Of a DNA stretch of 64,000 nt, positions 9,932-10,300 are shown piece after piece; the stretch's first letter is position 1, and every line of letters begins with the position of its first letter. The notes under the pieces are model-generated. The model searched no databases. It saw only the letters and a list, made by a program, of their open reading frames with translations, and was not told the DNA's origin. Source of the DNA: Heptranchias perlo (Eukaryota); contig NC_090359.1 of the NCBI RefSeq assembly GCF_035084215.1, positions 24,242,001-24,306,000 on the forward strand, read 5' to 3'. The translations under genes and the position numbers were made by a program.

Positions 9932-10300
9932 CTTGTTCTGCGAGGGCTGAGCCTGGGGTATTTTGCCAACTCACTTGTCTACCCCCCAATATCTCCACAC
10001 GAGAGAAATACTTCCTCGAGTCACTTTGTTTCAGCTGCTTTATGCGGATGGAGCCAGTATTCTCTGTAAATGGGTGGCCCAGGAATTCGACCCGGCCTCG
10101 GTCATCAGGGTGAACGAAGCCGTCTCTGGCGTTGATTATAAATTCTCCTCGAAACTCATTTCTTCTCCAACGAATGTTAATCGCCGTGGGTCTGAACCAT
10201 TCTGGGTAAGTGAAGGAGCAGGGGATTGTGATCGATTCTCCTTCCTCAGCCTCCAGGCGCTCAAGCTGGTTCACACGGAATTCAGCTCCATTTATCAGCA
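9932..10300 (-). pseudogene. Ig V-set exon, PILR/Siglec-like (receptor copy B, probable pseudogene)
   Basis: Acceptor ttttactgtccctcag|, donor CAAG|gtaaac, 369 nt, phase 1-1, open frame VLINGAEFRVNQ...GESITIPCSFTYP...IRWRRNEFRGEF...GRVEFLG...GSIRIKQLKQSDSRKYFSRVEILGGRQVSWQNTPGSALAEQ; the F-strand Cys position is TCT (Ser). Confidence 0.85.

Follow-up and report, generated by a model that had tools for sequence, protein, structure and literature searches.

Mammalian PILR receptors combine a single immunoglobulin V domain with adjacent inhibitory and activating genes. According to the relevant passages of PMC6235402, ligand binding by PILRA depends on arginine R126 and is lowered by mutation of R72, F76, G78 or Q140; a passage of PMC3533184 adds that PILRA requires sugar and peptide together. 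A 2026 genome-wide survey lists PILR among the immunoglobulin superfamily groups that first appear in mammals and puts the Siglecs at tetrapods (PMC13262535, as given in its Table S2 and the legend to its Fig. 1). Because Siglecs are also dated to tetrapods in those parts of the survey, its method dates families late. One review passage describes the shared function of PILR and Siglecs as convergent. Our literature search, with subscription journals (Dev Comp Immunol, Immunogenetics) largely outside its scope, turned up no paper that describes PILR in cartilaginous fish or in lamprey and nothing that tests the orthology of the RefSeq-named shark PILR genes or describes them, and a term search of the supplement to the elephant shark genome paper (PMC3964593) gave no PILR. 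The existence of shark PILR genes is already on record, because databases carry automatic PILR names.

The window, by which we mean the whole stretch of 64,000 nucleotides analysed here, comes from a shark, in agreement with a sequence-only reading that had taken the host for a probable cartilaginous fish. One V exon in it is of PILR type and belongs to a gene that we call g4. This exon is 369 bp long and in phase 1 at both ends, its acceptor (AG) preceding 10300 and its donor (GT) following 9932; its 122 codons are open on the minus strand, and the motifs quoted from it in that reading all lie in this one frame. Pfam assigns it to V-set (E 3e-8). When it was compared with the PDB using phmmer, the five top sequences were PILRA and PILRB (E 1e-13 to 1e-11; PILRA 1.1e-13, PILRB 6e-13), with Siglec-5 (1.9e-7), Siglec-15 (4.9e-7), pIgR (1e-4) and NKp30 (2e-3) lower; NKp30 and pIgR, which the same reading had named as families that might prove closer, thus rank behind PILR for this exon. 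A search of the shark's own genome gave 13 matches, four of them in tandem on contig C38 at 63–100% identity and all others at 35% or less. The paralogous V exons begin 1.3 kb left of the window.

G000:C38:24206492-24240725, left of the window: g1, g2 and the V exon of g3
1517..1558, minus strand: intact leader exon of g3 (activating type, P0002 family), the only part of g3 in the window
4203..4255, minus strand: last coding exon of g4, whose peptide is identical to the short tail found in the activating paralogues
4291..4424, minus strand: truncated stalk/transmembrane exon of g4, activating type, with a deletion junction near 4303 and a stop at 4293-4291
4527..9778, no strand: 32-bp tandem array of 168 copies, filling the g4 intron between the V and transmembrane exons
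9932..10300, minus strand: exon for the V-set domain of g4, the broken PILR-like gene (open frame, Pfam, phmmer)
11272..11315, minus strand: decayed leader exon of g4, with an ATG at 11315 and 78% identity to the paralogue leader region
about 29870-30240, minus strand: isolated B7/CD276/HHLA2-like V exon with an open frame and splice sites

The sequence-only reading had also spoken of a paralogue of this copy. The window has no second PILR-like V exon, and the only other V exon found in it is the B7/CD276-like one. For that exon the databases gave a single distant relative (33% identity), and no partner exons were identified; beside it lies a complex tandem repeat with 46/138-bp units, about 19 kb long (30347-50055). 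Tandem repeats make up over half of the 264-kb region.

The intact gene g1 encodes P0001 in seven coding exons. Those for the leader, the V domain and the stalk with its transmembrane helix come first; three short ones follow, and the final exon carries two ITIM-type motifs. This pair of motifs aligns with the primate-type PILRA tail and matches PILRA-type tails of mammals. Both g2 and g3 are of the P0002 type, with four exons, a transmembrane Arg and a short tail. The tandem on C38 therefore comprises an inhibitory-type gene (g1), two of activating type (g2 and g3) and g4, and the earlier suggestion of a paired-receptor family is borne out by a true paired cluster. In g1 and g3 a single V exon is followed by the stalk/transmembrane exon, and there is no C2 exon. 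A decayed copy of the F–G strands, with its Arg, sits in the intron behind the g3 V exon (L003:C38 24240058-24239984) and at the same place in g2, the trace of an earlier partial duplication.

We think it quite likely that the window exon encodes the V domain of a disabled gene of activating type, one of four in a shark cluster orthologous to the mammalian PILRs; orthology of the cluster, taken alone, we regard as highly probable. The value of the locus lies in the cluster and in the age of the family, the window exon itself being a dead copy.

The ligand face and its proposed role

Residue numbers are anchored on the row P0105 and were checked against known PILRA positions. The Arg of g4 (9999-10001) aligns with R126 of PILRA, as expected from the claim that the exon keeps the sialic-acid-binding position, and g4 also retains the equivalents of R72, F76, G78, W139 and Q140. 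The full set of PILRA ligand residues is kept in g1 as well. In g2 and g3, R72, F76, W139 and Q140 are replaced and R126 has become Lys. The expectation that intact paralogues would conserve the Arg is partly contradicted: within this cluster only one of three intact genes has it, the two of activating type having Lys, though it is found in 17 of 25 cartilaginous-fish domains (a 28-row clade minus three near-duplicates). Elsewhere R126 occurs in 7 of 9 rows from caecilians, 4 of 20 of reptile type, 26 of 31 from mammals and 7 of 8 from lampreys. Given its retention in just those 4 reptile-type rows and in a single intact shark paralogue, we regard the position as labile.

Other positions set most cartilaginous-fish rows apart from the nine Siglec-type rows, none of which has R72 (18 of 25 in cartilaginous fish), W139 or Q140 (19 of 25 each) or the F-strand Cys (24 of 25). 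W59 of PILRA is found in 0 of 25 cartilaginous-fish rows. The B-strand Cys is present in all 25, the position being Phe in 29 of 31 mammalian rows; because the Cys persists in the monotreme rows P0108 and P0147 as well, the change to Phe and W59 mark a late subtype and not the family. Membership of the shark genes in the therian PILRA/PILRB subtype was considered and rejected on these two positions.

Activating-type proteins of Heterodontus and Cetorhinus retain the Arg face, from which we infer that g4 represents the ancestral activating form and that g2 and g3 are derived. Positive selection on the ligand face of g2 and g3 was also considered (dN/dS against g1 of 1.3–1.4), and we do not claim it because the excess is not significant (Fisher p 0.27 for g1/g3).

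We hypothesize that g1 would bind sialylated O-glycopeptides on host cells through its F-strand Arg and would dampen leukocytes through SHP-type phosphatases, as PILRA does. The activating genes g2 and g3 would couple to an ITAM adaptor, with FcR-gamma a likelier partner than DAP12 because their Arg lies near the outer end of the helix; an Arg so placed goes with FcR-gamma rather than DAP12. Their ligand is probably something other than sialic acid, and g4 may be a former activating partner that shared the ligand face of g1 and was lost by birth-and-death turnover. Ligand, phosphatase and adaptor are modelled on PILRA and PILRB, from passages of PMC3533184 and PMC13358205 and from general background on these receptors. 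On this analogy we lean towards sialic-acid binding by g1. The natural pair formed by g1 (Arg) and g2/g3 (Lys, with a remodelled face) offers a means of testing when sialic-acid self-recognition in the family started.

A tentative alternative is that the shark genes are true PILR orthologues that do not bind sialic acid, the Arg being structural or serving a protein ligand, and that glycopeptide recognition arose later, in mammals. It draws on the loss of the Arg in two of three intact paralogues and in 16 of 20 reptile-type rows, on the confinement of W59 and of B-strand Cys loss to mammalian rows, and on the joint need of PILRA for sugar and peptide. However, g1 keeps R72, F76, G78, R126, W139 and Q140 and is aromatic at position 33, a set in which mutations reduce PILRA binding, and five positions change together in g2 and g3, as expected of one binding surface. 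We therefore consider this alternative possible but doubtful, and prefer recognition of a sialylated ligand by g1.

Family placement, synteny and age

The search covered 1.84 billion representatives, of which 349 matched at E 0.001 or better; the best 150 of these 349 were examined. Thirty proteins were named by look-up, and taxon labels of the other rows were inferred from a 283-domain tree. The named relatives come from sharks, rays, chimaera, caecilians, frogs, tuatara, tortoise, gecko, platypus, echidna, anteater and lampreys, with a gar Siglec-15. A tree of 32 rows, hand-picked from the 283-domain tree and spanning only 125 columns, places 8 cartilaginous-fish and 11 tetrapod PILR-type rows on one side of a branch with support of 97/95. 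On the AU test, grouping the eight cartilaginous-fish rows with Siglec-15 is rejected at p 0.020, and grouping them with the other Siglec-type rows at p 0.044, which is marginal. Addition of two distant B7-like outgroup rows moved the root inside the PILR-type rows, and a quick version of a 59-row mixture tree had no resolved base.

Profile and fold comparisons rank PILR first. A profile of 17 cartilaginous-fish rows found PILRA at the top of the PDB (E 1e-28), with Siglec-15 (6e-17), sialoadhesin (9e-12) and NKp30 (1.5e-8) at lower ranks; five-domain pIgR reaches 3e-26 by summed score and 5.5e-12 for a single domain. For single domains NKp30, pIgR/CD300 and TCR-like V sequences are far below PILR, and the trees are without these families. 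The AlphaFold model of the g1 V domain has a pLDDT of 94, the folding alignment having included mammalian PILRs. Its six best Foldseek matches are PILR entries, with a top VIA Z of 19.4 (rmsd 1.5 over 116 residues); sialoadhesin (Z 18.4) trails the best PILR by no more than 1, and MAG (Z 18.0) and Siglec-15 (Z 17.8) tie with other PILR entries.

Two other identities were rejected for the cluster: Siglec-15, on the AU result (p 0.020) and on the presence of a separate Siglec-15 candidate on contig C4 (L012; E 8e-21 to Siglec-15 and no PILR at E 1e-4), and Siglec more broadly, on the missing C2 exon in g1 and g3, the F-strand Cys in 24 of 25 rows and the AU p of 0.044. Other Siglec-15-like V exons lie beside L012 (G000:C4:4.97-6.14 Mb; L005, L007-L010, L012, L013), and the six other than L012 are without the F-strand Arg. 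Siglec-like V exons of the shark also occur on C45 (L006, L011).

Seven Pfam families served as markers of the human PILR region, chosen from what we take to be its gene order. Five of the seven match C38, which makes up 0.92% of the genome:

C38 21.72 Mb: zf-CW, with one of its six matches on C38
C38 21.78 Mb: Bin3, with one of its two matches on C38
C38 21.82 Mb: PPP1R35, its one match
C38 25.3-25.4 Mb: TRAPPC14, six of six exon matches
C38 28.75 Mb: SRRT, two of two matches

For STAG none of three matches is on C38, and the one FIS1 match is on contig C597. The PILR-like cluster, at C38 24.2 Mb, has the ZCWPW1/MEPCE/PPP1R35-like block on one side and TRAPPC14 on the other, each megabases away; the human PILR genes presumably lie in the corresponding interval. 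The ZCWPW1/MEPCE-like block is 2.4-2.5 Mb from the cluster, so that synteny holds at contig scale only. Neither ZCWPW1 nor any other immediate human PILR flank was found near the cluster among 148 of the 203 unmasked frames of at least 100 codons in 264 kb; ZCWPW1 is linked to PILRA in a passage of PMC6235402. An SPSB-like SPRY exon (L028:4800-5495, minus strand) lies 58 kb to one side of the cluster, and a DGAT2/MOGAT-type exon (L027:4781-5146, minus strand) 100 kb to the other.

The shark family might instead be a sister lineage, derived from an ancient PILR/Siglec-15-like stock as an ohnologue or by independent expansion, and not a direct orthologue. Both canonical Cys and the Tyr-Phe-Cys-Arg-Val-Glu motif are common to shark Siglec-15, the deep branches are weak, and no immediate human PILR flank was found beside the cluster in the frames scanned. 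We judge this origin unlikely, as the AU test rejects the union of shark rows with Siglec-15 and the Siglec-15 locus is separate, the markers share a contig with the cluster, the tail motifs match, and a continuous series of domains runs through rays, chimaera, caecilians, tuatara, tortoise, gecko, monotremes and a placental mammal. The original assignment to a PILR/Siglec-like family accordingly survives in a narrower form: top matches, fold, tree and chromosome-level synteny point to PILR, and not to a loose PILR/Siglec class.

The PILR family is thus likely to be as old as jawed vertebrates and not specific to mammals. If the cluster is orthologous, the family was already present in the last ancestor that jawed vertebrates share, the Arg common to PILR and Siglecs looks inherited and not convergent, and the loss of the B–F disulfide becomes a therian change.

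Decay and transcription of g4

The lesions of g4 affect its leader, its canonical disulfide and its membrane anchor. The leader remnant has one extra base, and AC where the paralogues have their GT donor; no other leader copy was found upstream of the V exon. In the V domain the B-strand Cys is present (codon at 10220), but the F-strand Cys, retained in the paralogues, is Ser (TCT, 10002-10004), which makes g4 the only one of 25 cartilaginous-fish rows without it. A contig of the DNA run X1 over 9800-10033 shows no difference from the assembly, so the Ser is not an assembly slip. Further downstream, the loss of about 3.7 kb (roughly 3,704 bases when g3 is the reference) fuses the transmembrane exon to the end of the next intron, and the stop at 4293-4291 precedes most of the transmembrane helix. 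The junction is crossed by a 74-base X1 contig at single-copy depth and with no differences. The assembly may itself derive from X1, so these contigs are a check on the assembly and on nothing more. The dN/dS of the g4 V exon against g1 is 1.1.

As leader, disulfide and transmembrane exon are not intact, we file g4 as a pseudogene of the PILR family, which it almost certainly is; the exon had been read as a receptor copy, and g4 is incapable of making a membrane receptor. An array like that at 4527..9778, but shorter, occurs in g3. Base 10103 is read differently by all covering contigs in runs X1, X5, X6 and X8; the alternative base would change one Asp of g4 to Tyr, as in the paralogues, and the assembly base is likely a single-base error or a rare allele.

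No run is recorded as RNA. Three (X5, X6 and X8) were guessed to be RNA from the sample that also gave the DNA run, and so add no independent support. Spliced leader–V contigs in X6 and X8 are of g2/g3 type, g1-type contigs are present in the guessed-RNA runs, and g4-type contigs occur in X5 and X6. The sole joined g4-type contig is antisense, with one intron:

10206..17887, plus strand: GT-AG intron of an antisense spliced transcript, placed by mapping the loose end of a 1124-base X6 contig to 17888 onward

This one X6 contig joins 10035-10205, which overlaps the g4 V exon, to 17888 onward; its 30-base loose end has no exact genome match because one base differs there. One frame stays open for more than 130 codons across the join. 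No sense-spliced g4 transcript was seen among the 22 of 26 contigs examined, and X5 and X8 have no contig over 4060-4525, blanks that prove nothing either way. A segment at about 1201-1340, in intron 1 of g3 and with matching sites in g1 and g2, is joined to a V exon in an X5 contig and is probably an alternative 5′ exon of the intact genes.

That g4 is alive, with an unseen leader through which its V domain is secreted as a decoy, would suit its open V frame, its two kept splice sites, a deletion that takes only the membrane anchor and the g4-type contigs in X5 and X6, but is very improbable with no intact leader found upstream, the canonical disulfide gone, that dN/dS of 1.1 and a joined contig that runs antisense.

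Comparison with known systems

The shark cluster resembles mammalian PILR in its single V domain and in the adjacency of inhibitory and activating genes, in the R126-type Arg that g1 and g4 combine with R72, F76, G78, W139 and Q140, in having marker genes on a common contig, as in the human PILR region, and in the two-tyrosine-motif pattern of the g1 tail. Unlike mammalian PILR, sharks keep the canonical B–F disulfide and have no W59. Their activating genes carry a transmembrane Arg, whereas the primate-type row P0105 has Lys, and the living activating genes g2 and g3 are without the sialic-acid Arg, g4 being a pseudogene. RefSeq entries with automatic PILR names (XP_067828253.1, XP_067828254.1, XP_072447381.1, XP_007910027.1 and others) are paralogues of g4 and their relatives; the names are pipeline similarity labels, under which the inhibitory g1 is called ‘beta’. 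Automatic names are also misleading on multi-V-domain PILR-type proteins (turtle homolog B, Siglec-12/14, pIgR-like), among them P0004, P0005, P0008 and P0085 from caecilians and frogs and the ray-type P0006, P0007 and P0010.

Siglec-15 shares with the shark PILR type the F-strand Arg in Tyr-Phe-Cys-Arg, both canonical Cys and a similar fold (Z 17.8), but it has a separate locus on C4, its W139–Q140 pair is present in 0 of 6 rows, and it has a C2 domain, of which the shark cluster has none. Sialoadhesin, MAG, CD22 and the CD33-related Siglecs have the fold and the position of the essential Arg in common with the shark PILR type; they lack the F-strand Cys (0 of 9 rows) and have extra C2 domains. 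By definition the Siglec family has a V domain followed by C2-set domains, and no F-strand Cys.

A V family of lampreys, mostly ‘uncharacterized’ in RefSeq (P0129, P0163, P0011 and P0035), has the Arg in 7 of 8 domains. Its member P0129 resembles g1 in combining a single V domain with a transmembrane helix and a pair of ITIM-like motifs, and its top PDB match is PILRA (E 3e-14). The family falls outside the jawed-vertebrate PILR branch, with an AU p of 0.24 for its position relative to PILR and the Siglecs. It is expanded and mostly unnamed (P0143, P0014 and P0098 also belong to it), some members having the Arg and ITIM-like tails and some several domains. P0129 may extend the PILR family further back. 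More speculatively, PILR-type paired receptors with a sialic-acid Arg could predate jaws, with the lamprey V–transmembrane–ITIM family co-orthologous to them; the disulfide-bonded V domain would then be the oldest vertebrate sensor of sialic-acid ‘self’, and the shark activating arm, with g4 lost and g2 and g3 remodelled, would have repeatedly discarded the sugar site.
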